Shown here in pieces: positions 20,115-60,963 of a stretch of 64,000 nucleotides of DNA (positions within the stretch are counted from its first letter, which is position 1; every line of letters begins with the position of its first letter). The notes below the pieces were generated by a model, which worked only from the letters and a program-made list of their open reading frames with translations, did no database searches and was not told the DNA's origin. Origin of the DNA: Eledone cirrhosa (Eukaryota); contig OZ024740.1 in NCBI GenBank assembly GCA_964016885.1, positions 204,848,001 through 204,912,000 of the forward strand, in the 5' to 3' direction. The translations under genes were made by a program, and so were the position numbers.

Positions 20115-20331
20115 AAGAGGGCGTGGTAAGAATACACCAGAGTACTCAATACTTGGGGTAGTAGTGTGGGTAATAGGAAAAGTGTCAGGACCCTGACGGC
20201 TGAGCTCCAACTGTTTCGACAGCTAGATCCGAAATGTTCGGATCTAGCTGTCAAAACAGTCGGAGCTCAGCCGTCGGGGTCCTGACTCTTTTCCCATATA
20301 CATATATATATGTATATGGGAAAAGAATCAG
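20109..20331 (-). mobile_element. Fold-back family P1 copy (hammerhead 3' half), palindrome 20176-20294
   Basis: Palindrome plus conserved tail tactaccccaagtattgagtactctggtg (reverse complement here); in (TA)n. Confidence 0.7.
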
Positions 20332-20416
20332 TATATATATATATGAGTACTAGCAGTGATACTCATGCTAGTCCCGTCAACTTATTATATATATATATAT
20401 ATGTGTATATATATAA

Positions 20417-20608
20417 GAGTCTGGACCCTGACAGCTGAGGTCTTGCCGTTTAAACAGCTAGTTCCAGATTGGAATCAACTGCTGAAACGGCAAGAGCTCA
20501 GCCATCAGGGTCCCGACACTTTCATATAAACATATACTACTACCCCAAGTATTGAGTACTCTGGTGAATAATGGTCTAACCAGTTTCTAACTGAATCGTT
20601 CCTGATTT
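20417..20608 (+). mobile_element. Fold-back family P1 copy, palindrome 20418-20519
   Basis: ggaccctgacagctgag...gaaacggcaagagctcagccatcagggtcc plus the tactaccccaagtattgagtac tail. Confidence 0.7.
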
Positions 20609-20624
20609 ATATATATATATATAT

Positions 20625-20811
20625 AATTGTTTCTACTTTAGGCACAAGGCCAGCAATTACCCAGTGCATTACTGGTACTTTATTTTATCGACCCCGTAAG
20701 GATGAAAGGCAAAGTCAACCTCGGCAGGATTTGAACTCAGATCGTAAAGGGACGTAACTATGCTGGAAAGCATGGCTTCCGACCCTCTACCGATACTGCC
20801 AATCCACCGCC
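20625..20811 (-). mobile_element. S1 SINE, full length, young
   Basis: Near-identical to 58114-58302. Confidence 0.9.
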
Positions 20812-21076
20812 ATATATATATATATAATATTCATATATAAAGGAACAAAAAATCAGTGTTGCATCAGATACATATTTAATTAGATATTACATATGTTTCA
20901 CTGTCGATCAGCTCGAGGAACGATCTATTAATGATCGAACCTGACTCTGGAATCGGAAGCGCCTCAGATATGTTTTAACATGTAGACTCGCGTTTAACAC
21001 GTAGACTCACTCTCAGACGTAGTCTCACTCTCAGTTCGATCATCATCTATGAAGGCAATTAATTTGCACCTTAATA

Positions 21077-21153
<77 letters not shown>

Positions 21154-21259
21154 TACACACATAGAGATAATTTCTAGCTCAGTTGACTACAAAGGTTTAG
21201 AAGAAGACAGCATGAAGAAGATGAGCAAGTAGACAGACCAATGGAGATATGTTGCGGTT

Positions 21260-24200
21260 CTACAACAGAATATTGTGTGTTATGTGTCTCCCTTTGTGTG
21301 TCATCCTATCTTGAGAGGGCAGAGCTCTCAAGTAGAGCAGAACATTGTGTTATGTGTCTCCCTTTGTGTGTCATCCTACCTTTAGAGGGCAGAGCTCTCA
21401 AGTAGAGCAGAACATTGTGTTATGTGTCTCCCTTTGTGTGTCATCCTATCTTTAGAGGGCAGAGCTCTCAGGTACAGCAGAACACTGTGTTATGTGTCTC
21501 CCTTTGTGTGTCATCCTACCTTTAGAGGGCAGAGCTCTCAGGTACACCAGAACACTGTGTTATGTGTCTCCCTTTGTGTGACATCCTATCTTTAGAGGGC
21601 AGAGCTCTCAGGTACAACAGAACATTGTGTTATGTGTCTCCCTTTGTGTGTCATCCTACCTTGAGAGGGCAGAGCTCTCAAGTACAGCAGAACATTGTGT
21701 TATGTGTCTCCCTTTGTGTGACATCCTATCTTTAGAGGGCAGAGCTCTCAAGTACAGCAGAACACTGTGTTATGTGTCTCCCTTTGTGTGTCATCCTACC
21801 TTGAGAGGGCAGAGCTCTCAAGTAGAGCAGAACATTGTGTTATGTGTCTCCCTTTGTGTGACATCCTATCTTTAGAGGGCAGAGCTCTCAAGTACAACAG
21901 AACACTGTGTTATGTGTCTCCCTTTGTGTGTCATCCTACCTTGAGAGGGCAGAGCTCTCAAGTACAGCAGAACATTGTGTTATGTGTCTCCCTTTGTGTG
22001 ACATCCTATCTTTAGAGGGCAGAGCTCTCAGGTACAGCAGAACACTGTGTTATGTGTCTCCCTTTGTGTGTCATCCTACCTTGAGAGGGCAGAGCTCTCA
22101 GGTACAACAGAACACTGTGTTATGTGTCTCCCTTTGTGTGTCATCCTACCTTGAGAGGGCAGAGCTCTCAGGTACAACAGAACACTGTGTTATGTGTCTC
22201 CCTTTGTGTGTCATCCTACCTTGAGAGGGCAGAGCTCTCAAGTACAACAGAACACTGTGTTATGTGTCCCCCTTTGTGTGTCATCCTACCTTTAGAGGGC
22301 AGAGCTCTCAAGTACAGCAGAACACTGTGTTATGTGTCTCCCTTTGTGTGTCATCCTATCTTTAGAGGGCAGAGCTCTCAAGTACAACAGAACATTGTGT
22401 TATGTGTCTCCCTTTGTGTGTCATCCTACCTTGAGAGGGCAGAGCTCTCAAGTAGAGCAGAACATTGTGTTATGTGTCTCCCTTTGTGTGTCATCCTATC
22501 TTTAGAGGGCAGAGCTCTCAAGTACAGCAGAACATTGTGTTATGTGTCTCCCTTTGTGTGTCATCCTATCTTTAGAGGGCAGAGCTCTCAGGTACAGCAG
22601 AACACTGTGTTATGTGTCTCCCTTTGTGTGTCATCCTATCTTGAGAGGGCAGAGCTCTCAAGTACAGCAGAACATTGTGTTATGTGTCTCCCTTTGTGTG
22701 TCATCCTATCTTGAGAGGGCAGAGCTCTCAGATACAGCAGAACACTGTGTTATGTGTCTCCCTTTGTGTGTCATCCTACCTTGAGAGGGCAGAGCTCTCA
22801 GGTACAACAGAACACTGTGTTTTGTGTCTCCCTTTGTGTCATCCTACCTTTAGAGGGCAGAGCTCTCAGATACAGCAGAACACTGTGTTTTGTGTCTCCC
22901 TTTGTGTGTCATCCTACCTTGAGAGGGCAGAGCTCTCAAGTACAACAGAACACTGTGTTATGTGTCCCCCTTTGTGTGTCATCCTACCTTTAGAGGGCAG
23001 AGCTCTCAAGTACAGCAGAACACTGTGTTATGTGTCTCCCTTTGTGTGTCATCCTACCTTTAGAGGGCAGAGCTCTCAAGTACAGCAGAACACTGTGTTA
23101 TGTGTCTCCCTTTGTGTGTCATCCTATCTTTAGAGGGCAGAGCTCTCAAGTACAACAGAACATTGTGTTATGTGTCTCCCTTTGTGTGACATCCTATCTT
23201 TAGAGGGCAGAGCTCTCAAGTAGAGCAGAACATTGTGTTATGTGTCTCCCTTTGTGTGACATCCTACCTTTAGAGGGCAGAGCTCTCAAGTACAACAGAA
23301 CACTGTGTTATGTGTCTCCCTTTGTGTGTCATCCTACCTTTAGAGGGCAGAGCTCTCAAGTACAGCAGAACACTGTGTTGTGTGTCTCCCTTTGTGTGTC
23401 ATCCTACCTTTAGAGGGCAGAGCTCTCAGGTACGACAGAACACTGTGTTATGTGTCTCCCTTTGTGTGTCATCCTACCTTTAGAGGGCAGAGCTCTCAGG
23501 TACAACACAACATTGTGTTATGTGTCTCCCTTTGTGTGACATCCTATCTTTAGAGGGCAGAGCTCTCAGGTACAGCAGAACACTGTGTTATGTGTCTCCC
23601 TTTGTGTGTCATCCTACCTTTAGAGGGCAGAGCTCTCAGATACAGCAGAACACTGTGTTATGTGTATCCCTTTGTGTGTCATCCTACCTTTAGAGGGCAG
23701 AGCTCTCAAGTAGAGCAGAACATTGTGTTATGTGTCTCCCTTTGTGTGTCATCCTATCTTGAGAGGGCAGAGCTCTCAGGTACAACAGAACACTGTCTTA
23801 TGTGTCTCCCTTTGTATGTCATCCTACCTTTAGAGGGCAGAGCTCTCAAGTACAGCAGAACACTGTGTTGTGTGTCTCCCTTTGTGTGTCATCCTACCTT
23901 TAGAGGGCAGAGCTCTCAGGTACAACAGAACACTGTGTTATGTGTCTCCCTTTGTGTGTCATCCTACCTTTAGAGGGCAGAGCTCTCAAGTACAGCAGAA
24001 CACTGTGTTGTGTGTCATCCTACCTTTAGAGGGCAGAGCTCTCAAGTACAGCAGAACACTGTGTTGTGTGTCTCCCTTTGTGTGTCATCCTACCTTTAGA
24101 GGGCAGAGCTCTCAGGTACAGCAGAACACTGTGTTATGTGTCTCCCTTTGTGTGTCATCCTACCTTTAGAGGGCAGAGCTCTCAAGTACAACACAACATT

Positions 24201-25797
24201 GTGTTATGTGTCTCCCTTTGTGTGACATCCTATCTTTAGAGGGCAGAGCTCTCAAGTACAACAGAACATTGTGTTATGTGTCCCCCTTTGTGTGTCATCC
24301 TACCTTTAGAGGGCAGAGCTCTCAAGTACAGCAGAACACTGTGTTATGTGTCCCCCTTTGTGTGTCATCCTAGCTTTAGAGGGCAGAGCTCTCAAGTACA
24401 GCAGAACATTGTGTTATGTGTCTCCCTTTGTGTGACATCCTATCTTTAGAGGGCAGAGCTCTCAAGTACAACAGAACACTGTGTTATGTGTCTCCCTTTG
24501 TGTGACATCCTATCTTTAGAGGGCAGAGCTCTCAAGTACAACAGAACACTGTGTTATGTGTCTCCCTTTGTGTGTCATCCTACCTTTAGAGGGCAGAGCT
24601 CTCAAGTACAGCAGAACATTGTGTTATGTGTCTCCCTTTGTGTGACATCCTATCTTTAGAGGGCAGAGCTCTCAAGTACAACAGAACACTGTGTTATGTG
24701 TCTCCCTTTGTGTGACATCCTATCTTTAGAGGGCAGAGCTCTCAAGTACAACAGAACATTGTGTTATGTGTCTCCCTTTGTGTGACATCCTATCTTTAGA
24801 GGGCAGAGCTCTCAAGTACAACAGAACATTGTGTTATGTGTCTCCCTTTGTGTGTCATCCTATCTTTAGAGGGCAGAGCTCTCAAGTAGAGCAGAACATT
24901 GTGTTATGTGTCTCCCTTTGTGTGTCATCCTATCTTGAGAGGGCAGAGCTCTCAAGTACAGCAGAACACTGTGTTATGTGTCTCCCTTTGTGTGTCATCC
25001 TACCTTTAGAGGGCAGAGCTCTCAAGTACAGCAGAACACTGTGTTATGTGTCTCCCTTTGTGTGACATCCTATCTTTAGAGGGCAGAGCTCTCAAGTACA
25101 ACAGAACATTGTGTTATGTGTCTCCCTTTGTGTGTCATCCTACCTTTAGAGGGCAGAGCTCTCAAGTACAGCAGAACACTGTGTTATGTGTCTCCCTTTG
25201 TGTGACATCCTATCTTTAGAGGGCAGAGCTCTCAAGTACAACAGAACATTGTGTTATGTGTCTCCCTTTGTGTGTCATCCTACCTTGAGAGGGCAGAGCT
25301 CTCAAGTAGAGCAGAACATTGTGTTATGTGTCTCCCTTTGTGTGACATCCTATCTTTAGAGGGCAGAGCTCTCAAGTACAGCAGAACACTGTGTTATGTG
25401 TCTCCCTTTGTGTGTCATCCTACCTTTAGAGGGCAGAGCTCTCAGGTACAACACAACATTGTGTTGTGTGTCTCCCTTTGTGTGTCATCCTATCTTGAGA
25501 GGGCAGAGCTCTCAGGTACAGCAGAACATTGTGTTATGTGTCATCCTATCTTGAGAGGGCAGAGCTCTCAGATACAACAGAACACTGTGTTATGTGTCTC
25601 CCTTTGTGTGTCATCCTATCTTGAGAGGGCAGAGCTCTCAGATACAACAGAACACTGTGTTATGTGTCTCCCTTTGTGTGTCATCCTATCTTGAGAGGGC
25701 AGAGCTCTCAAGTACAGCAGAACACTGTGTTATGTGTCTCCCTTTGTGTGTCATCCTATCTTGAGAGGGCAGAGCTCTCAGGTACAGCAGAACACTG
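21260..25797. repeat. 70-bp minisatellite, ~65 units
   Basis: Unit tacagcagaacactgtgttatgtgtctccctttgtgtgtcatcctacctttagagggcagagctctcaag; shortened units near 22830, 24010 and 25540. Confidence 0.98.
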
Positions 25798-25846
25798 CAT
25801 TTTGACTTAATTTTTATATCTTTTCTCTGAACTGTGCAAACCCTTC

Positions 25847-26190
25847 ACCACACCAACACACATATTTATACCAACACATATATACACATGCAAGCATACA
25901 CACACACCAACACGCACACCCCAACCCATACACACCACCACATACACACATGCAAGCACACACACACCAACACATACACACCACCATATACACACAACCA
26001 CATACACACCACCACATACACACCAACACATTCACACCACCACACACACACCAACATTCACATCAACACACACACACAAACACATTCACACCAAAAACAC
26101 ACACACCAACACATACACTCCAACACACACACACCAACAAACACACACCAACACACACACCACCACATACACACCAAGTCACACACACCA
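25847..26190. repeat. Degenerate (CA)/(CAC) low-complexity tract
   Basis: Direct inspection. Confidence 0.95.
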
Positions 26191-26208
26191 GCAGATACTC
26201 AATTACTA

Positions 26209-26713
26209 TCTTAACTATAATAAAGAAAGGAGTGCGGGATTGCGTCCGTCCAGAATATATTTTTTTACCCCGTTTGTAAAATAAGTTGGATTACTTTGAA
26301 TAAATAATGAATGAATATTACATAATTTATGTGCTAAATTTCGTGGCTGTTGATTAAATATATTTTATAGCTTATTTAAAGACCTTTAAAATTCACTTCT
26401 TTAAAATTTTCAAATGTCAACACTTCCGGTTAGCGGCTGTTATATAATAACACTTATAAAAATATCGCATATATTTCCGTCGCTAATTTTCTCCTAATGC
26501 AGTTTATATATAATAGCGTCTCTTTTTTAAATGTATCATACATTACGTTACTGATTACAGAAGACAGTGTAACATAGACTTCATTCGTGTATAGTGTCAA
26601 TTACGATTTTATTTGATGTATCATATCTACATGTATATATATTTGTGTATAATATCAATATACACACTACACATGCTAGCAGAAAACCAGCCGTAGGGTG
26701 GTTTTTCTGCTAG
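26209..26713 (+). mobile_element. Non-autonomous Helitron family H2
   Basis: 5' TC(ttaactataataaag); 3' hairpin ending CTAG|T; second copy at 34405-34938. Confidence 0.8.
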
Positions 26714-27141
26714 TATTTTTAATGAAGACACTGCCTATAAGTTTCAAAAGAGAATATAATTTTATTGATTCAAAATTTCATATTCAGTTGTATTTATTCA
26801 GAAACAGGGAGAGAGAAAAACTAAAAATGTGAGGAGGGGGGAGTTCACAGAAAAGGAGTCTTATTGTCAAATCCTATTTTCCTATTTATTATAGGCAAAA
26901 AATATGGTATAACCATTCGTGAATTTTATGTCGAATAATAATAATATTCAATTTGTTTTCAAGCAAACAGCCTCACTATGCTATGTTTTTAAAGATGACC
27001 ATCACCATCTTTTTGTTCTAGCGGTGACAGAGAGAAACAACCGACAATATTGTTTCTGGGTTATTGCCCTTTGTCAAGAATGTGTATGTCTCTTTTCTGT
27101 TACTCATTAGAACTCTCGAGAATATTTAGTATTCTCTAAAG

Positions 27142-27320
27142 CAGGCATGCCAAGCATGCAGCCCTTTACAAGCATACCTGCGGCCCACACAAAGGTTTTT
27201 ACAGTGCAAGTGTAAAATAAAATAAAAAATATTAGTTGTAATGTGCGCAATTTGTTGTCATGTGTGGCCCTCAGACAACACATATGTGGTCCTCGGGGGA
27301 CCATCAGTTTGACATGCCTG
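27142..27320. mobile_element. hAT (Charlie-like) MITE
   Basis: TIR caggcatgccaa / ttgacatgcctg; perfect 8-bp TSD ctctaaag. Confidence 0.9.
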
Positions 27321-27582
27321 CTCTAAAGTATACATCTGTTTTATTCGATATAAAACTCCCAAATGCATTTACATATGTTAGAGCAAAAAATGGAATTCTA
27401 ATTTTGTGTTTATTGAATAACCCTTTTTCCTGTTTGAAGGTGTAAACTGCTAATCTAGGATGCCATATGCTCTGACATCTTCTCTGGTACCTATTTCATT
27501 CTTTTGGCCATAAACTTTGGTGTTGCCAGTCACAAGACAGAGGAGCAGAAGATGATTAAATACCAATCATTAATGGACAGAT

Positions 27583-27795
27583 AGCGGTGGATTGACAGTA
27601 CCAGTATTAAACAACATACTTTACTGCATAAAGTACGGTCCTTTACATTCTGAGTTCATATCCCGCTGAGGTTAACTTTGCCTTTCATTCTTACAGGGTC
27701 GATAAAATGAAGTACCAGTAACACACTGGGGTTGATTTAATCAACTTTCCCCTCGCCAAAAATTTGTTGGCCTTGTGCCTAAATCAGAAACTATT
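27583..27795 (+). mobile_element. S1 SINE (longer-tail variant)
   Basis: gcggtggattgacagta...gagttcatatcccgctgaggttaactttgcctttcatt... Confidence 0.8.
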
Positions 27796-28486
27796 TTTGG
27801 ACAGATCCCATTTCATGCTAGTTATCTATGTATAAATTTGAGCCACTTCCGTCCGTCACATAATGTGTGTGTTTGTGTGAATGTATGTCTGTCAGTGTGT
27901 ATTTTTGTGTGTCTGTGTTTGCATGTTTAATTTATATACTCATACATATAAATGTATGCATATGCACATACACACATGCACACATATATATACACAAACG
28001 CGTCAGCCTGTTGAAAAAAATTCTAGTTGTTAAAACTTCCAGTGCTCTTGCTCTGTGAAGAAGGAACCCAATGATATGGAATGACTGATACAGAGATTGT
28101 TATTGTCTGTTCTTCATAACAACATTTTTTCTATCTTGTCCACACGTCATCATAACTGATATACCATTTGAATGAGGGTGTAGTATTTACCTATTCTTTC
28201 CCTTTTTTACTTTTGTATGTGTTTTGCTGTTTTTTAAAAAACTTATATTTTATTTGTGTTTAAATTTGCTACACACCCTGACATGTGAATATGACAAGTC
28301 ATTAATTGCCTTACAGTGGGTCTTTGTTTCATTCCTCTCAACAGAATAGCTACTTGTAATTATATTCGAGTTAGAGATAATGTCTTCAATCTGATAAATG
28401 TAAACAATATTTTATAAATAAATTTCTTGGTATAATTATCATTTATAAAACAAATATTTTCTTTTTATTCATACATACAGGCACAA

Positions 28487-28642
28487 GGCATGGCTGTGTG
28501 GTTAAGGAGTTTAGATTGTAACTATGTGGTTCTGGGTTTAGTCTAGCTGTAAGGCACCATTGGCAAGTGTCTTCTACTATAGCTTTGGGTTAACCAATGT
28601 TTTGTGAATGGAATTTGGTAAATGGAAATTGCAGAAGCTCCT
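28487..28642 (+). mobile_element. tRNA-derived SINE family S3
   Basis: gcatggctgtgtggttaag...ggcaagtgtcttctactatagc...gaagc; related copy at 35352-35515. Confidence 0.65.
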
Positions 28643-29069
28643 CATATATATATACATATAGTGTAGGTACCAATCCTCTACGAAACATGCGTAACAATAC
28701 AAAATAAATATCTTATACATGTAAATGAAACTTTTTCATTTTTTCTAATATAACATCCGTTCTTCCATGCTAGCATGAGTTAGATGCATACATATACATA
28801 TATATATCATCATCATCATCATTTTACGTCCGCTTTTCCCTGCTTAAAATTAGATTAAAGATGCCATGTCTGAGAATATCAGAAGTATATATCAGAAGTA
28901 TATATATGTATATATATATATAAGTATATATATATACAGAGAGAGATACATTGAAGACCTTCAGGGAAAAATAAAGAGAGATGCAGGACAAGTTTAAAGT
29001 GAGCATGAATAAGCTCAATGCAACCATGGAGGAGTAGCATGTTGCTCAGCTGAAGCACAAACACTAACC

Positions 29070-29215
29070 TTCCTGGACAATGCTGCAAGCATTGAAGCAG
29101 AAATGCCATGGAAAGCTGAGCTGTGGTGTCCTGTTTTGCAGGACAATGCACCAGCGCACACAGCACATGAAACTCAGGAAAATACACGACTTTGGCTACG
29201 TATTGTATAGAAGTG
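29070..29215 (+). mobile_element. mariner transposase fragment
   Basis: Frameshifted translation QALKQKCHGKLSCGVL / QDNAPAHTAHETQ / KIHDFGY, the DNAPAH catalytic-D motif. Confidence 0.7.
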
Positions 29216-29335
29216 GGGTAGTGATGCATACTAGAGACCACTAGATGTTTACTTCAACCCATGTACATGGGAAGGTGGGTCTTTAGCATTACTACATAAT
29301 GCCAGAGATCTTGATCCTGGGTCAAAAGTTAACAA

Positions 29336-29407
29336 TGTGTCAGCTGGGAGTCGAACATGGATCGACTACATGGAAGGCAACTATGCTAACCATTACACTA
29401 CTGACGG
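29336..29407 (-). pseudogene. tRNA-Gly(TCC) pseudogene
   Basis: Minus strand ccgtcagtagtgtaatggttagcatagttgccTTCCAtgtagtcgatccatgttcgactcccagctgacaca is colinear with animal tRNA-Gly-TCC; acceptor and T stems are mismatched. Confidence 0.8.
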
Positions 29408-30529
29408 TTACATTTTTCCATGGCACTAGTACTAGAGAGGTTGTCAACTTCCCTCATTGTCTCAGTCCATTTACCAGTCATTTTGTAGGGGTCTACTGAG
29501 TGTATTCCAATGTGCCACCAACACTACAGAAGTGGTCAAGTCCCTGAGAAAACCAAATAGTCTCCTCTATTGAAAGTATTTATTTAAAGCATCAACACCA
29601 AAGAGAGTGTCAAATCCTTGAGTTAAGCCAAAGAGTCACCTCTACCCTCTGTTGTCTGATTTATTTGTCCACCACTTTGCAGGAGGCACCAAGTGCATTC
29701 CTTTGTAGCACCTACACTAGTGAGATTGTCCCATCCACTGTAAACTAAAAGGGACCTCTCCACACCATGTAGCCTCTGATCTTTTTATAATGAAGTTGGT
29801 ATTATCTGGAAAATGCTTCTTTCCTCAATAATATAAGGATATGATAAGTGCAGGCATAATTGTGTGGTTTCATCTTTGGTCAGGTTGATAAAGAAACTAT
29901 CAGCCCATTGCTAGTGCAACCCCACCACCACCTGTTATATCCTTAGTCAACCCAATCCTATTGCAGGAGATACTTGCTCAGGGTGCCATGGTTATTAACC
30001 AAATATTTTAACCATGCAACTATGCCTATGTCTGTACATGATTAAATGCAATTTGATAAAGCTGAACTAATTCATAGAATCTGGTCTACAATAAATTTTG
30101 CAAATTTTAGATAATTTTAATGCATGTCAGTAGGTCTGATTGCCAAACATTCTTAACACATATTAACTACTTACTTGTATAAGCACTGTATTCTCTTGTG
30201 TATAATATGAGAAATTTTGAACAAAAATTAAGGTTAAAAAAGAGGGGAGAGGTTATATTATATATATATATTCTATATATACTCTATCACTGACTGACAA
30301 ATCATATTTAATAGAAAATACATGTCATTGGGAGCTTAAATCAAATTGCATCATTATTCACTGATTGATGCAATACATATACAACCCTGATTAGTCAACA
30401 TGTTTTCCGTAAGTATATATATAGAGAGAGGCAGTTCTTGCAATTCTTGCACTTAATTCAGCCTCCTGCCTTCCATCACTCATAAACACAACTTCGAGAT
30501 ACTTCAACTTTTCCACCTACATCAGTGTT

Positions 30530-30990
30530 CCCTCCTCAACCAGATCTATCTAGAACTCTTTTCCGCTGCCTCTGTTATTGGGCTTTGGTCCTAGTCTTCC
30601 TAGAGACTGAAAGTTGTTTCATGAGACTGTAGGTAGATTTGCCCATAAAGCCTCTGGAGAGAACTTTGACCTAAAAGTCTGCTTCCCTCAGGCTGTTGGC
30701 CAAACTGGCATATGTTTTGGTCTTGAACATGTGTGCTTCTATTCTTCTTTCAAATGGCATGGTAAGTTCAATCAAAACCAGCTGTTTTGATGAACTGGAA
30801 TAGAGTATGATATCTGGCCTTGAGTTACTCTTCCTGGTGATTTCTAGTTGTCTTGTTGATCCTGGGCAGTTTGCTGTACACTTCCAATCTCTTTAGCACT
30901 TAATTGTGTCTCAAAGTGTATCTTCCTTGGGCTAGTGCTACACTGCATGAGCTCAGAACATGTTCTACTGTCTGTCTACTCTGGCAGAGT
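30530..30990 (-). mobile_element. Hero-like non-LTR element RLE fragment
   Basis: Minus translation RPDIILYSSSSKQLVLIELTMPFERRIEAH...RGFMG...EAAEKSSR.IWLRR, a PD-(D/E)xK RLE of Hero type. Confidence 0.75.
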
Positions 30991-49168: not shown

Positions 49169-49176
49169 TACACGTG

Positions 49177-49242
<66 letters not shown>

Positions 49243-49342
49243 TAGAAAACGATCGACTTTCGTCAAATCGGACCAAGGGAACAATGTTTCCGTTGGTCTT
49301 TCCAATTGCTAATACTATCTATCGGTCGCAACTCCAGGTAGA

Positions 49343-49463
49343 AGGAGCAACGTGAAATAAAGTGTCTTGCTCAAGGACATAACGCATCGCCTGGTCCAGG
49401 AATCGAACTCACAACTTTACGATTGCGAATCCAATTCTCTAACCACTCAGCCACACGCCTTCA
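49343..49463 (-). mobile_element. S2-related SINE 5' part
   Basis: tRNA-like head and gtgaaataaagtgtcttgctcaagga. Confidence 0.75.
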
Positions 49464-49510
49464 CATATATATACATATATATACATATATATATATGTAT
49501 ATATATATAT

Positions 49511-49899
49511 AGTATAAAAGAGAAAACACAGGTAAGCATTAAGAGAAGGATTTAATCCAGGTATTTACGACCGTTTCATTGGTAAGTGCAACCTTATATT
49601 GCTATACTGCAAATAGCAGCCACTCAATTATAATTGTTGGACTGTGAACAACAATTATAATTGAGTGGCTGCTATTTGCAGTATAGCAATATAAGGTTGC
49701 ACTTACCAATGAAACGGTCGTAAATACCTGGATTAAATCCTTCTCTTAATGCTTACCTGTGTTTTCTCTTTTATACTTTATACTCCAAGATTGAACGGAA
49801 TTCTTACAAACTTGTGGAGTTACCCCTAACCGTACGTTGAAACCATCCATGAAACTGGCTTTCTTAACCAAAAACTGGATCACAATAAGCAATTTTTTG

Positions 49900-49903
<4 letters not shown>
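49511..49903 (+). mobile_element. Apparently perfect ~128-bp-arm palindrome (49511-49777) with unique tail; hammerhead-like 3' half
   Basis: Arms match base-for-base by eye; GAAA-cggtcg-TA at 49711; (TA)n on both sides. Confidence 0.8.
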
Positions 49904-49934
<31 letters not shown>

Positions 49935-49939
<5 letters not shown>

Positions 49940-50305
49940 GAAAGTGAGGTTTTTTTTACAAAATGAAAAATAACCGAGGTGTCCTACACGAGTGAAAGTA
50001 TAAAGAAAAAGAGATGAAATCGAAAATGCAACTGGAGTCTTATTTTTTTTAAAAATATATATATTTATTTGGTTCCTTTACTGGTTTCGCAGTTCTTCTG
50101 CTTTTCAAAAGGTGAGTTGAGATGGAGGGTCTGTGGTTTTTCTCACATCAGTGTACACACTGATGTGAGAAAAACCACAGACCCTCCATCTCAACTTTTG
50201 AAAAGCAGAAGAACTGCGAAACCGGTAAAGGAACCAAATAAATATATATATTTTTTTTTAAAATAAGACTCCAGTTGCATTTTCGATTTCATCTCTTTTT
50301 CTTTA
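49935..50305 (-). mobile_element. Family P2 fold-back with ~150-bp arms, a U3-A8 hammerhead in each arm (minus 50075-50112; plus 50195-50230)
   Basis: (c)ctt-TTGAAAA-gcag aagaa ctgc-GAAA-cc(g/a)g-TA-aag(g). Confidence 0.75.
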
Positions 50306-50316
50306 TATATATATAT

Positions 50317-50511
50317 GTAATAGGAACGAGTAGGACCTCGACGGCTGAGCTCAAGCCGTTTCGACGGCTAATTTTGGACTAAAATCCAGAATTAGCCGTT
50401 GAAACGGTTTGAGCTCAGTCGTTGGGGTCCTATTACCCACTCTACTACCCTAAGTATTGAGTACTTTGGTGCGTTATGGTCCATCTGGTTCCTTACCACA
50501 TTTCCTTCGTT
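50317..50511 (+). mobile_element. Fold-back family P1 copy, palindrome 50331-50432
   Basis: Left arm read on minus: gtc-GAAA-cggc-ttgagctca-gccg-TC-gaggtcc; tail tactaccctaagtattgagtac. Confidence 0.75.
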
Positions 50512-50516
50512 ATATA

Positions 50517-50556
<40 letters not shown>

Positions 50557-50559
<3 letters not shown>

Positions 50560-52534
50560 TCATCATCATCATCATCATCATCAGGTTTAGCGTCCGTGTC
50601 CCACGCTTGCATGGGTTTGGACGGGGGTTTTCCCACTTGAGGCAAGAGTGGTTGTCTTGCTCGCATAGGACTGTCTGGCGGGTTTTCTACAGTTGGATGC
50701 CCTTCCTAACACCAACCACATTTACAGTGTGGGGCTGGGAGGTTTTTACCATGTTGCCTACACGGCCACATTACAGCGTGGACTGTCTGGCGGGTTTTCT
50801 ACAGCTGAATGCCCTTCCTAACACCAACCACATTTACAGTGTGGGGCTGGGAGGTTTTTACCGTGTTGCCTACACGGCCACATTTACAGCGTGGACTGTG
50901 TGTTTTTTTGTCGTGACACCTACACGATCTCATTTGTTTCGGCCTGGATGTTGTGGCACCAACATAACTTTACATTGAAGGGGGCGGTGTGGATGGGGTG
51001 GAGGTGGTGGGACGGGGTTGTGTTTTGATAGAGATGCCTACTGACTGTAGTAGGTTTTTACTTTGTATTTAGGTAAGGCGGGTCTTCTCTATTACTGAGT
51101 ACCGCCAAAGGTCTCGGTCCAGTGACATTGTCTTGGAGAGGTGTAAGCGTGTGAGGTCGGAATTTATCAGCTCGTCCCATGTTTTTCTGGGTCTGCCTAC
51201 TCCGTGGCTACCGTCTATCTTTATTGCCCTGCACTTTGTTATACAGCAGTCGTCTTTCATGCGCATCACGTGACCGTACCAACATAGCCTTCTCTCGAGT
51301 AAACAACATCTGATCCCTCTTATTTCTAATTTTTTCCTTAGTTCGTTTATGCTTTGCCGTTCACGTATATTACTATTGCACATCCAGCGGAGCATGCAAG
51401 CTTCGTTCCTCTCTAGTCTGCGTATATCCTCTGCACACAATGCCCAGGTCTCACTGCCATGCAGCATTGCTGTTCGTATGCAGGCATCGTATAACCTGCC
51501 TTTCATTTTTAGGGAGAACCCTCTAGCGGCTAATAGTGGTATAAGCTCTCTGAACTTTTTCCATCCAGTTCTGACTCTAGCTACTGTACTTTCAGAGCAC
51601 CCTCCCCCACTGCTGATTTTATCACCCAGGTAACGGAAGCTGTCCACTATTTCTATAGAACCCTCTGCGCAGTTGAAGGAGCTAGTATTTTTTGGGCACT
51701 TGCTGCTACCTATTGCACCAGAGCACCGGCCACATGTAAAATCTATGTTCTTAGTTAGCTTACCTGTGATCCCACTACATCTTTTAAGCACCCATACTTT
51801 GCATTTGGGACATAAAATGGAGTTTCTACCTACGCCTTTCCTACACACTGAGCATGGCCATTTCCCAGATGGGACCGCCGCCTTATTTTCTTTCCTACAA
51901 ACTAGAACTTTAGTCTTAGTCAGGTTAATTTTAAGGCCTTTTGATTCTAGGCCGTGCTTCCATGTTTGGAATTTCTTCTCTAGTTCGGTCATTGATTCAG
52001 CTATGAGCGTTAGATCATCTGCGTATAGGAGTTCCCATGGGCAGCCAGTCTTGAACTCCTCTGTTATAGCCTGAAGGGCAATAATAAATAGTAGGGGGCT
52101 AAGAACAGAGCCCTGATGGACACCAACTTTTACGCTAAACTCTTCACTATATTCGTTGTTAATTCTAACCTTGCTGACTGTTTCTTTATACATGGCTTGT
52201 ATAGCTCTCACAAGCCATTCGTCAACACCTAGTTTTCTAAGAGACCACCAGATAATGGAACGGGGGACTCTGTCGAAGGCTTTCTCCAAGTCGACGAAAG
52301 CTAAGTATAGGGGTTTACTTTTAGCTAGGTACTTCTCCTGTAGTTGTCGTACAATGAAAAGAGCGTCTGTGGTACTTTTGCCTGACACAAACCCGAACTG
52401 CATTTCATCTAGATCAATTCTCTCTCTGATTAGTTGCGCTATTACTTTTTCCGTGACCTTCATGACCTGGTCGATTAATTTAATGCCTCTATAGTTACCC
52501 CTATCTAGGGCATCTCCTTTTCCCTTATAGCAGT

Positions 52535-52535
<1 letters not shown>
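50557..52535 (-). mobile_element. RTE family A, 5'-truncated (ORF 51069-52463)
   Basis: RT motifs, (ATG)n tail, ~110-bp tandem duplication in the 3' UTR (50670-50900). Confidence 0.96.
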
Positions 52536-52589
<54 letters not shown>

Positions 52590-52605
52590 GTATATATATA
52601 TATAT

Positions 52606-55600
52606 CAGGTATATATGTTAGGTTGCTCTCGAGTGCTACTGGTAACATGTAACCCAGTACTACCTGTCTCATGGTCGGGTCGTCGGCGACTAAACCGGCA
52701 ACCCCATCAAGCTTGCTTGGTGAAGAGGGTGATATTTGGACACCCTGCGGGATGAAATACAAAACCTGGCAAAGGACGGAGGAACTCAGCAGTCAATGGC
52801 CATCCAAATAGTACTTTTTTTTTTTTTTTTTTTCTTTACTTTCTATGAGACGGAAAATCTGAAAAAAACCTGCAGCTTTGGAAGCATCCGATGATGTTGA
52901 CCAGTTCTCCTTTTCGGGTAGTGTTTTCGATGCTCAGAGAGTGGGATTGGTCGCATGCAAGGCCTTTCCCCACTTAAAAAACCTTCAAAGCACAGGCATT
53001 GGTCGTTCAGGATCTGTTACAGGTTCATGTGGCTGGCCATAGCCTAAAAGTGCACCAAACTCTATGATGACAGATGATAACCTTGAAGTCAATGGCAGTA
53101 AGGGCTCTGGAGCTTATTGTGAAGGGGTCTGGCTCGGCAGGTGTCCCATGGCACCGCAGCGTGGGCCCGGTCGTCATCCTACAACTGCAAGGAGGTTCAA
53201 ACCTCTGAATATTGGATGTTGGAATTTAAGAACTTTACTGGATTCCCAGTCCAGTAAAACTCGCTCTGAAAGAAGATCTGCTTTGGTGCCGAGGGAACTC
53301 GATTGCCGTAGCATGGACATCGTTGCAGAAACGAGATTGGCAGGTGAGGGTCAATTCACAGAACAAAAGGGAGGATATACCTTCTATTGGAGTGGTGGAG
53401 CAGAGGGTTGTAGGAGAGAGGCAGGGGTCGCATTTGCAGTCAGGAATGGAATCGTCTCAAAGCTGGAAAATCTTCCTTGTGGATTCAATGATCAGATAAT
53501 GTCCATGAGGGTCCCTATGATTCAAAACCGCTTTGTGACTCTGGTCAGTGTGTACACTCCTACTATGTGTGCTAGTGATGATGAAAAACTAAGTTTTTAC
53601 ATGTCTTTGAGAGAGGTCATCCATGGTATACCTTATGCAGACAAGATTGTCATCATTGGTGATTTTAATGCACGTGTTGGTAATGACTGGGAAGCTTGGA
53701 GTGTGATGGGCAGGCATGGAGTAGGTAAGTGCAATAACAATGGCCTACTTCTGTTGCAGATGTGCACTGAGATGGATCTTGTTGTTGGGAACACGCTCTT
53801 TCAGCAGAAAGACAAATATAAGACAAGTTGGATGCATCCAGGTTCCAAGAAGTGGCACCTTATTGACTTCGTTTTAACGAGAAAATGTGATATCAGGGAT
53901 ATCACATTGGTTCATGTATTACGAGGCGCGGAATGTTGGACTGATCATCGTCTGGTGCGCGCCAGGTTTCAATTTGTTGTGAAGCCCAAAGTAAGGGGGA
54001 AGAAGGTTGCACTTCCAAAACAACTAAACGTGGCTCGTCTGAAAACAGAGAAAGTCTGAGCTGTCGAGGTCCCTTGAGTCCATAGAATGTGAAAACACTT
54101 GGGAATCATTGAAGAAAACCGTCTATGATGTTAGTGCTGGAGTTTTGGGTCATACCAATAGAAAGCATAAAGACAGGTTTGATGAAAATGATCCAGTGAT
54201 CCAGACCTTGCTTGAAGAGAAACAAAAAGTGCTGACATCATTGTTGTGTGAGACACGTTCTGACAGGAGTGACCGGACCTTCGGGCAGATCAAGGCACGT
54301 GTGCAACATCGATTGAGAGCCATGCAGGATACCTGGTGGAGCCAAAAGGCTGATGAAATCCAAAAGGCCTCAGATAGACATGATACAAAGCTCCTATACA
54401 GTCTGCTCAGGGAGGTGTATGGTCCGACCAGTTCACAAATATCACCACTTCGCTCCAGGGACGGCAAGGAATTGCTCAGAGATCCGAAGGAAATCCTGAT
54501 CAGGTGGCATGACCACTTTGATGAGCTTCTCAACAGACCATCAGAAATTGATGATGAGTTCATCCGGTCGATTCCATCCAGACCTACAAAGCTGGCAATG
54601 GCTGATCCTCCTTCATTTGATGAGGTGGCGAAGGCCATTGCCAAATTAAACAGCGGCAAGTCACCTGGAATGGATGGACTGAGTGCCAAGATTTTCAAGT
54701 GTGCTGGTGATAATTTCTTAAACCACCTCACTGATCTCTTTGTGAATGTTTGGAATGAAGAAGAAGTGCCACAGGATTGGAAAGATGCACTGATGGTGGT
54801 ACTTTACAAAGGAAAGGGAGCCAAAGATGACTGTGGCAACTACAGAGGTATTCCACTGCTATATGTGGCTGGGAAGATCTTGTGCAGGATATTGTTGGAC
54901 AGATTGATACAGCACATTGCTGTTGAGGTACTTCTTGAGTCCCAATGTGGCTTTAGGAATGGCAGAGGCACTGTTGACATGATCTTCTCGGCCAAACAAC
55001 TTCAATCTGACCAAGGCATTTGACACCGTTAATCGGAAGGCTTTGTGGGTTATTTTAGAGAGATTGGGCTGTCCTGAAAAGTTTCTGAACATTCTGAAAC
55101 TCTTCCATGATGACATGCAGGCAAGGGTGAATGTTGGAGGTAAACTGTCTGAGCCAATCTCGGTTGAAAATTGTGTCAAGCAGGGTGATATACCCGCACC
55201 AACTTTGTTTGCCTTGTATTTCGCGATGGTGTTCTTCATGGCCTTCAAGGATTGTCAACACGGTATCTATCTCAGATATCGCACTTCCGGCAAGCTGTTT
55301 AACCTTAGGCGTCTCACTGCCAACACTAAGATACTGAGTACCTTGATCAGAGAATTTTTATATGCAGATGATTGTGATCTCTTTGCACACTCCCAGAGTG
55401 ACATGCAACACCTTATGGATTCTTTTTCCAATGCGTGCAGTGCTTTGAGACTGACAACTAATCTGCTCCGGATAAAGTTTTCAATGAACCCTGCATACAT
55501 GTATACGGTCAAAAGCTGAAGGCTGCTGACACATTTGTGTATTTGGGGAGTACTCTGAGTGTGACCTGTTCTCTGGATGCAGAAGTTGGTCTACATGTTA

Positions 55601-56420
55601 GTAAGGCAAGTGAGTCATTTGGAAGGCTCAACGACCGTCTTTGGTGCAGGCGAGGAATCACAATGAGGACCAAGGTGAGAGTGTATGCTGCATGTGTACT
55701 GTCAGCTTTGCTGTATGCATGTGAGACATGGGTTGCCTACAAACGGCATATCCACAGACTGGAACGGTTTCACCAGCAGTGTCTCAGAGAGATGCTTGGT
55801 ATCAAGTGGCAGATGCATGTGAGTGATCTTGAGGTCCTTGAGAGAAGTGAGTGTCGGAGCATTGAGAGTATCATCCACCAACGGCGTTTGCGATGGACCG
55901 GACACCTCTGCAGAATGGAGGATGATCGAATCCCAAAACAACTCCGATTCAAGGATTGTGTAAAGGACTCATTGAAAAAAACTGGTTTGATGATGGCTGA
56001 CTGGGAGATAGAAGCTCTTGAAAGAGAAACTTGGCGTGGAATGGTGAATGATGGAGTCCATAATTTTGAGGACAGACGCATAGAGCACAAGAAGATCAAA
56101 AGGGATGTGCGTAAGCAATGCCTTCGTGTATCTTTCGAAACGATCGGTGTCTCCATTGAATTGAAGTGTCCTGAATGTGGAAAAATTTGCTTGAGCAAAT
56201 CTGGTCTCAGGAGCCACAGTTGCAGCCATGTTCAAAGAGAACCAGTGACTTATGATCTCCACGGTGTTGTGATGCGGGACCTCAAGCCAGGGAGATCCAT
56301 AGTTGTCGTCAGTGTGTGAAGGAGTGCAAGTCTCTAGCAGGCTTGAAAAGCCATATCCGAGCGTCCCACATCTGAATCTGACAAGCGATTGCAATACTCT
56401 TGGCAGAGTTTGCAGCCATC
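52606..56420 (+). mobile_element. Near full-length RTE/BovB-like LINE family B (APE + RT + two C2H2 fingers), disrupted
   Basis: GCWNLRTL, ETRL, GDFNARVG, WHLIDFV, TDHRLV; ESQCGFR, KAFDTV, VKQGD.PAPTLF, LYADD, YLGS, RWTGHL.RM; (TA)n at both ends. Confidence 0.95.
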
Positions 56421-56462
56421 ATATATATATATATATATATACATGTATGTATATATATATAT

Positions 56463-57573
56463 ATCATCATCCTCGTTTAACGTCCACTTTCCACGCTAGC
56501 ATGGGTTAAACGGGAGTTGTCCCACTTGAGGCAAGGTTGGCCAGGTGACCGTGTCTCGCTCATATAGGACTATTTGGCAGATTTTCTACGGCTGGATGCC
56601 CTTCCTAACACCAACCACATTTACAGTGTGGAACTGGGAACTTTTTACCGTGTTACCTACACGGCCACATTACAGCGTGGACTGTGTGTTTTTTCTCGTG
56701 ACACCTACACAATCTCGATCTCATTTATCTCATTTATTTGGACTGGATGTTGTGGTACCAACTTTATAGAGGGAGGGTGGTGTTGGTGGGAGTGGGAGGA
56801 TAGGGTAGGGGTAGTGGATTGGGGTGTATATTTGGTTAAGAGGTGCCTACTGACTGTAGTAGGTTTTACTTTGTATTTAGGTAAGGCGGGTCTTCTCTAT
56901 TACTGAGTACCGCCAAAGATCTCGGTCCAGTGACATTGTCTTAGAGAGGTGCAAGTGTGTAAGGTCAGAATTTATCAGATCGTCCCAGGTTTTTCTGGGT
57001 CTACCTACTCCGTAACTACCATCAATTTTGATCGCCCTGCACTTTTTTATACAGCTGTCGTCTTTCATGCGCATCACGTGGCCATACCAACGTAGTCTTC
57101 TCTCAAGTAAACAGCATCTGATCCCTCTTATTCCTAATTTCTCACTTAGTTCATTTATGCTTTGCCGTTCACGTATATTACTATTACACATCCAACGGAG
57201 TATGCATGCTTCATTCCTCTCCAGTCTACACAGGTCCTCTGTACGCAATGCCCATGTCTCACTGCCATGTAGCATTGCTGTTCGTATACAAGCATCATAC
57301 AATCTGCCTTTCATTTTTAGAGAGAAACCTTTTGTGGCCAACAGCAGTATAAGCTCTCTGAACTTTTTCCATCCCGTTCTGACTCTGGCTACTGTACTTT
57401 CAGAACACCCTCCACCACTGCTGATTTCGTCACCCAGGTAATGGAAAGTGTCTACTATTTCTATAGAACCATCTAGGCAATAGAAGGGGCTAGTATCCTG
57501 TGGACACTTGCTACCTATTGCACCTGAGCATCGGCCACATATAAAATCTACGTTTTTAGATAGTTTACCTGTG
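56463..57573 (-). mobile_element. RTE family A, 5'-truncated
   Basis: ORF 56877-57573 is homologous to the C-terminus of the other copies; (ATG)n tail. Confidence 0.95.
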
Positions 57574-57575
57574 AT

Positions 57576-57608
<33 letters not shown>

Positions 57609-57911
57609 CAAATATAAATTAGCGAGAATTGCATTTCGGCTATTGGAAATTAGCGAAAAACAACTTCCGAGATGTGTGGCAAGCGCTCCATAGAAACGAG
57701 TGAACTAGAGCAACAATATACATTAAAAGGCCAAAGACACTGAGATGATGGTTAAACCATTAACCGCAAAACCATAGAAACGACCAAGCTATTCGGGTCA
57801 AACAAATAATAAAATATGATTGAAAATTATACCCGGACCCCTGGAAACGGTGGTAAAATCCAATATGGGGTTTCTGCAACTCCTAAATCAGGTACTGTCT
57901 GCTTAAACAAA

Positions 57912-58302
57912 TAATTGTTTCTATTTTTGGCACCAAGTCAGGTTATCCCAGTGTATTACGGGTACTTTATTTTATCGACCCTGTAAGGATGAAAGGCAAA
58001 GTTAACCTCGGCGGGATTTGCACTCAGATCATAAAGGGAGGTAACTCTATGCTTCAATGCGTGGCGCCCGACCCTCTACCGATACTGCCAATCCACCGCC
58101 CTGCTTAAACAAATAATTGTTTCTACTTTAGGCCCAAGGCCAGCAATTACCCAGTGCATTACTAGTACTTTATTTTATCGACCCCGTAAGGATGAAAGGC
58201 AAAGTCAACCTCGGCGGGATTTGAACTCAGATCGTAAAGGGACGTAACTATGCTGGAAAGCATGGCGTCCGACCCTCTACCGATACTGCCAATCCACCGC
58301 CC
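57912..58302 (-). mobile_element. Two S1 SINEs at one target site
   Basis: ctgcttaaacaaataat occurs three times (57899, 58101, 58303), bracketing both copies. Confidence 0.9.
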
Positions 58303-58534
58303 CTGCTTAAACAAATAATGTTAAGCTTTTGGTATGATGATCGAACAAGAAAGTGACTTTTTCAACAGGCATTTAGTTCTATGCAAAGCTAAGGAACTGA
58401 CCGTTATCTGAACCCACGTGGGAGGTTAGAAGGGAGACAACCCCTAGTCTTGGCGGATGAATTCAGTATGTGTGGTTATTGCAAAATTGCAAAATATCAC
58501 AAAACGAATTAAGCTCTTGACAGATATATATATA

Positions 58535-58697
58535 TATTATGGATAGTTTTAGCGTACGGCGTTGCTTGACTCAACGTAGATGACGAGTTTATGATTTCAT
58601 CTACGTTGAGTCAAACAACGCCGTACGCTAAAACTATCCATAATAAGTATTCACAACCTCTAATTGGATTACCTATAACGATATTTCGTTATCCTTT
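58535..58697. repeat. (TA)n-embedded fold-back element, palindrome 58535-58644 plus tail
   Basis: tattatggatagttttagcgtacggcgttg..ctcaacgtagatga / tcatctacgttgag..caacgccgtacgctaaaactatccataata. Confidence 0.85.
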
Positions 58698-58722
58698 ATA
58701 TATATATATATATATATATATA

Positions 58723-59378
58723 TCATCATCATCATCAACGTTTAACGTCCGTGTTCCACGCTTGCATGGGTTTGGACGGGGGTAGTCCCACTTGAGGCAA
58801 GAGTGATTGTCTTGCTCGCATAGGACTGTCTGGCAGGTTTTCTACAGTTGGATGCCCTTCCTAACACCAACCACATTTACAGTGTGGGTCTGGGAGGTTT
58901 TTACCGTGTTGCCTACACGGCCACATTACAGCGTAGACTGTGTGTTTTTTTGTCGTGACACCTACACGATCTCATTTGTTTCGGCCTGGATGGCGCGGCA
59001 CCAACATAACTTTACATAGAACGGGGTGGGGGGTATTTTGTTAGAGATGCCTACTGGCTGTAGTAGGTTTTACTATGTATTTAGGTAAGGCGGGTCTTCT
59101 CTGTTACTGAGTACCGCCAAAGGTCTCGGTCCAGTAACATTGTCTTGGAGAGGTGTAAGTGTGTGAGGTCGGAGTTTATCAGCTCGTCCCAGGTTTTTCT
59201 AGGTCTGCCTATTCCGTGGCTACCGTCTATCTTTATTGCCCTGCACTTTGTTATACAGCTATCGACTTTCATGCGCATCACGTGTCCATACCAATGTAGC
59301 CTTCTCTCGAGTAAACAACATCTGATCCCTCTTATTTCTAATTTTTTCCTTAGTTCGTTTATGCTTTGCCGTTCACGT
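58723..59378 (-). mobile_element. RTE family A, short 5'-truncated copy
   Basis: Last ~100 codons plus 3' UTR and (ATG)n tail. Confidence 0.95.
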
Positions 59379-59572
59379 ATATATATATTATTCAAAATGT
59401 TAACAAATGAAAAATATTCTCATAATCAAAATATATATTTTATTATACATATTTCAAAGGTACTATGTTTATCTCTGCAGGATTAGATAAGCTCAGGCAT
59501 AGATACTAATTAATTAGGTTCTATGGCGGAAATCATTCAAAAGATGTCATGTTATCATTATTATTGAGCGTA

Positions 59573-60170
59573 ATAAAGTACCAGTAATGCACTGGGTAAT
59601 TGCTGGCCTTGTGCCTAAAGTAGAAACAATTATTATTGAGCGTAATGGCAGTGGATTGGTAGTATCGGTAGAGGGTCGGACGCCATGCTTTCCAGCATAG
59701 TTACGTCCCTTTACGATCTGAGTTCAAATCCCGCCAAGGTTAACTTTGCCTTTCATCTTTACAGGGTCGATAAAATAAAGTACCAGTAATGCACTGGGTA
59801 ATTGCTGGCCTTGTGCCTAAAGTAGAAACAATTATTATTGAGCGTCAGACACCATGCTTTGCAACATAGAGTTATGGCCCTTTACGTTCTGGGTTCAAAT
59901 CCTGCCGAGGTTAACTTTACCTTTCATCCTTATGGGGTCGATGAAATAAAGTACCAGTAATGCACTGGGATAATTGCTGTCCTTGTGCCAAAAGTAGAAA
60001 CATTATTATTAACAGTTAAGGCAGTGGATTGGCAGTATCATCGGTAAAGCGTCAGACATCATGTTTTGCAGCATAGAGTTATGACTCTTTACCTTCTGAG
60101 TTCAAATCCCGCCGAGGTTAACTTTGCCTTTCATTCTTATGGGGTCAATAAAAGTAGAAACAATTATTAT
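59573..60170 (+). mobile_element. Cluster of four S1 SINE copies/fragments
   Basis: Repeated S1 bodies separated by duplicated attattattgagcgt and attattattaacagttaa. Confidence 0.88.
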
Positions 60171-60778
60171 TAACAGTTAATTTTAATATTTGGCTATATT
60201 CAATACATCATCTTTATTCAGACCACTATGTAATTAATTTGCATAATTTATGCATAAGCTCTTGCTTGCGTTTCTTTGACCTTGTATTATGACCTGTTTC
60301 GTAATCAGAAAGATCATTTTCAGTTAAAACTTCTGCTATAGGCATCAATTAATTTTCATTCTTTTATATATTACCTTTTTTTTATATCGCAGTAAATTTA
60401 TTCACACAAAATATTTTTAGCACATGGAAATTGCTGCCTACTACGAGAACTGAATATTATATATACATGTGTATATTAATACTACTTGTTGGTTATCTGT
60501 CATTAAGTAAACGAAATTACTTGGGGAGGGAAGAAAAGTAAAAAAAGAAAATTCAACTAAACATTAATTAAAAAAACACAAGAGGAGAAAAGAAAAGGAG
60601 AAGAGAGAATGAAGTAGTTTTTAGAGAAAGTTGCATTTTGCTGAAGCATGTGCCTAACTGCCCACACATCTGCCTACCGTATTAGCTTACAGTTATAAAC
60701 ATACTGATAAATAAATATATATATCTATTCATCATCATCGTTTAACGATATATATATACACACATTTATATATATATA

Positions 60779-60963
60779 TATGAAAAGATTCAGGGGGCCG
60801 ACGGCTGAGCTCCGTCCGTTTCGACAGCTAGATTTCGACGTCGAAACGGCCGAAGCTCAGCCGTCGGCCTGCTGAATCTTTTCATATTACCCACCCTACT
60901 ACTCCAAGTATCGAGTACTCTAGTGGGTTATTGTCTACTTGGTTTTTACCACACCCTATCTGA
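60779..60963 (+). mobile_element. Fold-back family P1 copy, palindrome 60779-60886
   Basis: gtc-GAAA-cggc-cgaagctca-gccg-TC-ggcc; tail tactactccaagtatcgagtactc. Confidence 0.75.

Follow-up and report, generated by a model that had tools for sequence, protein, structure and literature searches.

Four short palindromes lie within a 64,000-nucleotide (nt) stretch of Eledone cirrhosa DNA (assembly GCA_964016885.1, contig OZ024740.1, positions 204,848,001 to 204,912,000 of the forward strand; this whole stretch is termed the window herein, and positions in it are counted from its first letter). The genome hosting the window is 3.0 Gb in size and (TA)n rich, and all four copies have the same layout, i.e., a (TA)n run, the palindrome, a tail of ~80 nt, and a further (TA)n run (Table 1). 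A sequence-only reading of the window had described four palindromes with a common tail, built from the 3′ half of a hammerhead ribozyme, and had suggested that they arose when a complementary DNA (cDNA) snapped back at stem II of the ribozyme and primed its own copying. All four are present, with copy 1 on the minus strand. Here, we link them to a predicted Penelope-like element (PLE) and propose a different origin.

Table 1. Coordinates in the window of the four palindromes, their parts, and other repeats
Feature	Position	Strand	Remarks
Copy 1 (subfamily C)	20110-20294	minus	Palindrome 20176-20294, tail 20110-20175
Copy 1, first G of GAAA	20217; 20253	minus; plus	Tail arm; tailless arm
Copy 2	20416-20607	plus	Older, decayed palindrome plus tail
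Copy 2, first G of GAAA	20484; 20452	plus; minus	
Copy 3 (subfamily B)	50318-50510	plus	Palindrome 50331-50432 plus tail
Copy 3, first G of GAAA	50401; 50362	plus; minus	
Copy 3, arm reach			Tailless arm to -21, tail arm to about -16; tail arm with 10-nt deletion
Copy 3, hammerhead 3′ half	50401-50423	plus	GAAA, stem III with palindromic GAGCTC loop, cleavage triplet position, then 3′ strand of stem I
Copy 3, head-to-head junction	50362-50401		Both arms finish in loop 2 of the parent hammerhead, around conserved TTAGTC
Copy 3, PLE tail	50433-50510	plus	Stretch bounded by two 3′ end points, each then followed in the parent by TAT, matching the (TA)n target
Copy 4 (subfamily C)	60781-60963	plus	Palindrome 60778-60887, then tail; tail and tailless arms trimmed to -4 and -11, respectively
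Second palindrome-plus-tail element	49937-50307		Hammerhead cores at 50198 (plus) and 50108 (minus)
Third palindrome-plus-tail family	49506-49899		
Fourth palindrome-plus-tail element	58535-58697		
Satellite array	9545 onward		

Arm positions are given relative to the first G of GAAA, which is position 0, with negative numbers upstream of it. The arms correspond to a hammerhead 3′ half comprising GAAA, stem III, the position of the cleavage triplet (GTT in copy 3, GTC in most family copies), and the 3′ strand of stem I, as had been suggested; the sequence given for them, GAAACGGC..GCCGTC, is only approximated (copy 1 has GAAACAGTTGG, and copy 2 is decayed). Arm length does vary from copy to copy, by a few nucleotides at the centre, by differences between subfamilies, and by the deletion in copy 3, but the outer ends are fixed: the short end is TTCC and the long end TTCGT, each directly before TAT. 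The inversion centres cluster near stem II, but they are located in loop 2, a few nucleotides past the 3′ strand of stem II, and not at stem II itself. Folding of positions 50336-50446 gave -78.3 kcal/mol (z = -14.9 versus 200 shuffles).

A 186-nt query returned 4,331 first-look candidates in the E. cirrhosa genome. Exact matches to a degenerate arm pattern amounted to at least 23,808 arms genome-wide, with none for the reversed control pattern, and a density of 25 arms per 1.0 Mb, sampled at fixed intervals outside the window, extrapolates to roughly 75,000 arms. The parent was reached by walking upstream from one chimeric locus, and long copies contain a reverse transcriptase (RT) domain, a C-terminal GIY-YIG endonuclease (EN), and a 3′ untranslated region. 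One locus, L347, is a 3,118-nt unit with arms that are 99% alike and an intact open reading frame (ORF) of 719 amino acids, in which GATD, YRDDG, and VIY..YIG motifs mark RT plus GIY-YIG EN in a single ORF. A Pfam search with the whole 719-amino-acid protein gave no match, and one fragment matched RVT_1 only (E = 0.003, below the cut-off). By these motifs and by likeness to published proteins, the parent is predicted to be an EN-containing (EN+) PLE, and with this intact ORF both the PLE derivation and the linkage to an RT/GIY-YIG ORF that had been suggested for the palindromes are borne out. The ORF also contains DKT (116), CNCPDRSIC (571; CxCx5C), CNLC (669; CxxC), and CKH (697; CxH), with EN at the C terminus, and the family inserts into (TA)n, as the Hydra clade does; motifs and target thus suggest membership in the Hydra clade. 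Membership in Naiad was rejected because EN is C-terminal. On the minus strand of another locus, L096, a 510-amino-acid frame represents a second PLE ORF, related to this one but distinct, whose RT-EN linker carries an asparagine-rich insert. Six near-identical loci in G000:C4:351.97-352.45 Mb (L241, L242, L245-L247, and L253) apparently reflect a segmental duplication carrying a truncated copy.

The combination of a partial tandem of pseudo-long terminal repeats (pLTRs), an inverted 5′-truncated copy, and a tail was present in L095, L347, and L337-L346, and an inverted 5′-truncated copy plus tail is typical of PLEs (PMC8557442). Copies of the family finish at either of two points about 80 nt apart, and TAT follows both in the parent. 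Long copies are head-to-head pairs of one tailed and one tailless arm, and the palindromes are therefore the short end of a known architecture. Tailless copies are also found singly, which makes the short end a site of priming. Lengths grade without a break from the short to the long copies and on to full RT-EN copies, which speaks against a distinct non-autonomous class, the other possibility raised from the window. A miniature inverted-repeat transposable element (MITE) or a separate non-autonomous fold-back element would share the fixed outer ends and the very high copy number, but the inverted repeat is not terminal (the tail is on one side only), the centre is copy specific, and the lengths are continuous up to full RT-EN copies, and we regard such an origin as scarcely credible. 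The one-sided tail and the copy-specific centres do not agree with the MITE class, and duplications are unreadable in (TA)n. A non-LTR retrozyme was rejected as well, because the short copies are inverted and without core, while tandem whole-hammerhead units are required (10.64898/2026.07.22.740005, available parts).

The parent fold is a type I hammerhead with stem I (ACCCC/GGGGT), a TTGANAA core, a G10.1-C11.1 pair, a 9-bp stem II, a 32-nt loop 2, GAAA, a 5-bp stem III with a palindromic loop, and GTC. Its core is UUGANAA (the U3-A8 variant) and not CUGANGA. Among 54 whole-motif copies scored, 47 were U3-A8, 4 C3-A8, 3 U3-G8, and none C3-G8, and TTGANAA was found in 92 of the first 100 stem-II-spanning matches listed (with a pattern that excluded C3); the intact CTGANGA copies that had been expected were hence absent from the scored set. 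The U3-A8 swap keeps some hammerhead activity. CTGANGA at 6 to 24 nt from GAAA, a spacing too short for the real motif, gave 31 genome matches, and the 30 inspected were palindrome centres or chimeric junctions without stem I. In the type I three-way junction, 94.4% of cells were paired across 31 copies. Stem II covaries over three subfamilies (GC 42/AT 30; TA 26/GC 30/AT 8; TA 46/AT 26), although this is partly fixed by the search patterns, and three subfamilies represent few independent events. Minimum-energy folding returned the junction in two of three copies (z = -2.3, -0.2, and 0.0). An Rfam search of the window gave no match; U3-A8 cores with long loops escape both CUGANGA searches and Rfam, and such ribozyme motifs are therefore undercounted.

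The arms stop preferentially at one point inside loop 2. By eye, the first 100 of the 23,808 arms comprised 30 that stopped at -2 to -16, 47 at -17 to -22, 2 at -23 to -44, and 21 that passed -45, with the degenerate pattern slightly favouring passing arms. A scripted count of 101 arms not chosen by length (drawn from 301, with query-selected arms dropped) gave 38 stops at 0 to 15 nt upstream of GAAA, 39 at 16 to 22 nt, 7 at 23 to 59 nt, and 17 passing arms, with the mode at 18 nt (13 arms). Pattern counts of 13,447 versus 128 overstate the drop, as the upstream pattern is a minority variant, and the sampled counts are preferred. In read contigs, the opposite-strand joint fell between -19 and -15 in 8 of the 11 cases listed; these contigs come from four runs of one study, possibly the assembly's own sample, and are not independent support. 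Position -18 is the A of T(T/C)AGT(C/T), and TTAGTY is the best-kept part of the otherwise variable loop 2 (1.4 to 1.8 bits in 78 copies). The motif resembles the initiator consensus TCAGT. Reading its TTAG as a 3′ splice site was rejected, as the sequence upstream is not constant and the peak includes AG. Directly before AGTC, T-runs of 6 to 21 nt were present in 6 of the 47 arms stopped there and in none of the 21 passing arms, and these probably represent untemplated poly(dA) on the cDNA end. An end at -18 with a few added A's would also account for the shoulder at -19 to -22, since the parent has T's there.

The route suggested from the window has the cDNA cross stem II, snap back there, and self-prime. 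Stem II is self-complementary, 9 bp long, and conserved, and the centres are nearby, but this route predicts the whole 32-nt loop 2 in the centre together with a TTTCGA-CGGCTA junction. The junction was seen in none of the first 100 of 3,818 stem-II-spanning matches, the centres do not contain the 32-nt loop, only 1 of the 101 scripted arms stops in the interval from -34 to -59, and in many pairs the tailless arm exceeds the tail arm in length (see below); the snap-back suggested from the window is therefore highly improbable. If a hairpin were the obstacle, RT would halt at the hairpin's 3′ base (-1 to -11), so that a stop 7 nt into the loop is unlike a hairpin block. Another reading is that the RNA extends upstream and the folded ribozyme, through a contact between loop 2 and stem I, halts RT at -18, or that a stalled 5′-3′ exonuclease leaves a 5′ end there. 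The stop does sit within conserved structure, loop 2 AGUYC could by its sequence pair with GGAMU upstream of stem I, and about a fifth of the arms pass seamlessly. However, RT copies the whole AGUYC before it stops, whereas a helix there should block at -13, and poly(dA) ends and non-homologous jumps from one base (see below) are signs of a template end according to the parts of a study on R2 RT that were available (PMC8857657), in which untemplated addition is also linked to template jumping. We consider both forms of this reading unlikely.

Jumps from the stop are documented by copies whose tail continues into the ORF (89 copies, of which 30 were examined). In 10 of these 30, ORF positions from +208 to +941 are joined straight to -18 (six copies), -17 (two), or -16 (two). 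Among the other 20, 7 continue through the ORF examined, the join lies upstream of the stop in 3 and downstream in 4 (immediately past the GUC site in 2 of these), and 6 run out into other sequence. The copies' own 5′ ends lie at about -15 to -28 in 9 cases, while 8 pass and 13 start downstream. A pattern requiring GTCC revealed five further ORF-to-stop joins near the start codon, one of which coincides with the L308 locus. Scattered acceptors joined to one donor base are the pattern expected of a template end. In a post hoc test for a cap-derived G, a G precedes A-18 in five of six ORF jumps. Acceptor sites were also concentrated near the start codon of the ORF, no more than about 15 nt from it (+208 to +223; L329, L331, L334, L324, L312, and L348-L352). 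Joins at L307 and L309 (2 of the 30) begin at the G-run that directly follows the predicted cleavage site, which hints weakly at occasional copying of cleaved RNA. The joins from the ORF to the stop bear on a further explanation, in which the insertions were originally long and head to head and later collapsed when the palindrome centre was deleted. Long palindromes are unstable, and some arms show microhomology deletions; collapse nevertheless gives no account of the one-sided edge at -18, the poly(dA), or the ORF-to-(-18) joins, and long pairs with 99% identity persist, which makes it very improbable.

Any fold-back from a tailed cDNA predicts that the tailless arm is never the longer one. 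Of 11 long pairs, picked for size and blind to arm length, 7 had the longer arm on the tailless side, with an excess of about 100 to 2,300 nt. In 72 short pairs, it was at least 4 nt longer in 20, the tail arm was longer in 13, and both were within 3 nt in 39; among the 31 short pairs that were not query selected, the tailless arm was longer in 11 and the tail arm in 5.

We propose, with a probability of roughly 0.6, that the palindromes are two head-to-head short copies of one and the same element end, generated by priming on both target strands, run-off at the RNA 5′ end in loop 2, and joining or jumping of the cDNA ends. A ribonucleoprotein would nick both strands of the (TA)n target, and each target 3′ end would pair with the UAU adjoining one of the two start sites. 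Both cDNAs would then run to -18, where the stop probably reflects the physical 5′ end of the RNA, and RT may add untemplated bases at this end. The cDNA ends would be trimmed and joined, giving a palindrome, or RT would jump to another position on the RNA. The RNA probably starts by RNA polymerase II initiation at the initiator-like T(T/C)A+1GT(C/T). Since a transcript starting in loop 2 is without the 5′ catalytic core, only the 3′ copy of the ribozyme could cut. Genomic palindromes would then be dead-end by-products and not mobile units.

Several observations weigh against this proposal. Trimming or a subsequent deletion has to be invoked for about a third of the arms, which do not reach -16. 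The conservation of TTAGTY may reflect a contact between ribozyme loops and not an initiator, palindrome junctions leave the reading of a cap-derived G at -19 ambiguous, and a search of sequencing runs listed no RNA run carrying the sequence, so that the start site is predicted from DNA. Passing is correlated between arms, with 56 of 100 listed passing arms in long-long pairs; this fits one RNA primed twice, but it is also compatible with fold-back at the cDNA end, and another class of template (tandem or circular RNA) may underlie many long copies in place of independent jumps. The arms of one long element were closest relatives or tied in 8 of 8 tested and have private variants in common, and 6 of 10 purely A/T junctions have equal A and T runs, as judged by eye. 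These last two points would be expected if the cDNA does run off at about -18 and its 3′ end, extended by untemplated bases, then folds back and self-primes, so that the second arm is a copy of the first; the junction symmetry is better predicted by such a fold-back, the 39 of 72 short pairs with near-equal arms agree with it, and self-priming has been proposed for PLE palindromes (PMC3846280). Arm kinship fits one RNA primed twice, and it also fits cDNA-end fold-back or gene conversion. What decides for us is that copying cannot give an arm any parent sequence that is absent from its template, while the tailless arm is the longer one in many long and short pairs, that a tail cannot be copied from a tailless cDNA, and that solitary tailless copies mark the short end as a priming site. 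Fold-back of the cDNA end is thus a doubtful, though serious, alternative, and the footprints argue for two primings over self-priming.

More tentatively, the RNA may start in its own ribozyme (-18) and end at the cut made by the 3′ copy (+22), with strong-stop cDNA transferred through the repeat to the RNA 3′ end. A start at -18 and a cut at +22 would leave a 41-nt terminal repeat, like a retroviral R region. In retroviruses, minus-strand strong-stop DNA is a short cDNA made near the RNA 5′ end that must transfer to continue. The 41-nt repeat could, speculatively, guide a seamless jump, and strong-stop cDNA would come from the 5′ pLTR. No RNase H or integrase was seen in the L347 ORF. If true, this scheme would explain why PLEs retain hammerheads in their pLTRs, how pLTRs are rebuilt, and why inverted ends occur, with tens of thousands of failed transfers recorded in the genome. 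The family offers single-base genomic footprints of intermediates (a fixed stop, untemplated tailing, and jumps from the stop), and the young L347 copy with its intact ORF makes the proposal directly testable in vitro.

The window contains other repeats of related form. The second palindrome-plus-tail element also lies in (TA)n, and both of its arms contain a whole minimal hammerhead with the same U3-A8 core, its centre being about 45 nt upstream of the core. The third family has 134-nt arms, 99% complementary, and a tail of ~110 nt, with a hammerhead-like 3′ half (GAAAC-GGTC-GTA) and no core seen in the arms. A fourth palindrome-plus-tail element is located between (TA)n runs, with no hammerhead motif recognised. 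The satellite array consists of 49-bp units, with 99 copies at 49-nt spacing and strong GC skew.

How the pLTRs, inverted copies, and tails of PLEs form has been named as an open question (PMC2377424 and PMC8557442), and pLTR regeneration has been called unexplained (PMC2377424). Inverted truncated copies, tails, U3-A8 cores, and the self-priming idea are already published, as the accessible parts of PMC8557442, PMC4209133, and PMC3846280 show. Literature searches, with most subscription papers outside their coverage, found no strong-stop or start site inside a PLE hammerhead and no tailing or jumps from it; of the supplements, that of PMC8557442 was covered, and those of other papers could bear on novelty.

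The closest published relatives are in the Hydra clade, including Hydra-1_Obim, which has the same C-terminal GIY-YIG, DKT, CxCx5C linker, CxxC, CxH, and (TA)n target, and by eye the Hydra-1_Obim protein resembles the L347 ORF motif for motif (PMC8557442). The E. cirrhosa element differs in having RWR instead of RWK, a unit of 3.1 kb instead of <3 kb, and a tail of ~80 nt instead of 30 to 40 nt. In the parts of PMC8557442 that were available, Hydra hammerheads are canonical (the core of Hydra-1_Obim is CTGAAGAG), with a short loop 2 and a minimal stem III, in contrast to the U3-A8 core, 32-nt loop 2, and 5-bp stem III found here. Schistosoma Cercyon hammerheads have the same U3-A8 core, a long helix II, a palindromic loop 3, and opposite-strand motif pairs 100 to 700 bp apart; they are minimal motifs, and the sections of PMC4209133 covered report no pile-up of 5′ ends within the ribozyme. 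The layout is different in a plant retrozyme, whose mapped start precedes an intact ribozyme (PMC12029980, parts available). In Drosophila virilis Penelope, the start site lies inside the pLTR with an initiator, as proposed here, but upstream of the intron and the ribozyme (PMC2377424). Head-to-head inverted junctions are common among Adineta PLE palindromes, for which self-priming on an antisense template is favoured (PMC3846280). Anolis Poseidon PAc provides an in vitro counterpart to the priming proposed here: both target strands are cut and extended, and two internal RT starts bound the tail, with uncleaved RNA as template; joining of cDNAs, run-off inside the ribozyme, and template jumps are not shown in the accessible parts of that paper (PMC11167929). 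Compared with retroviral strong-stop transfer and the end-to-end jumping of R2, the E. cirrhosa element would be target primed, would use no tRNA primer, and would leave its failed transfers behind in the genome as palindromes.

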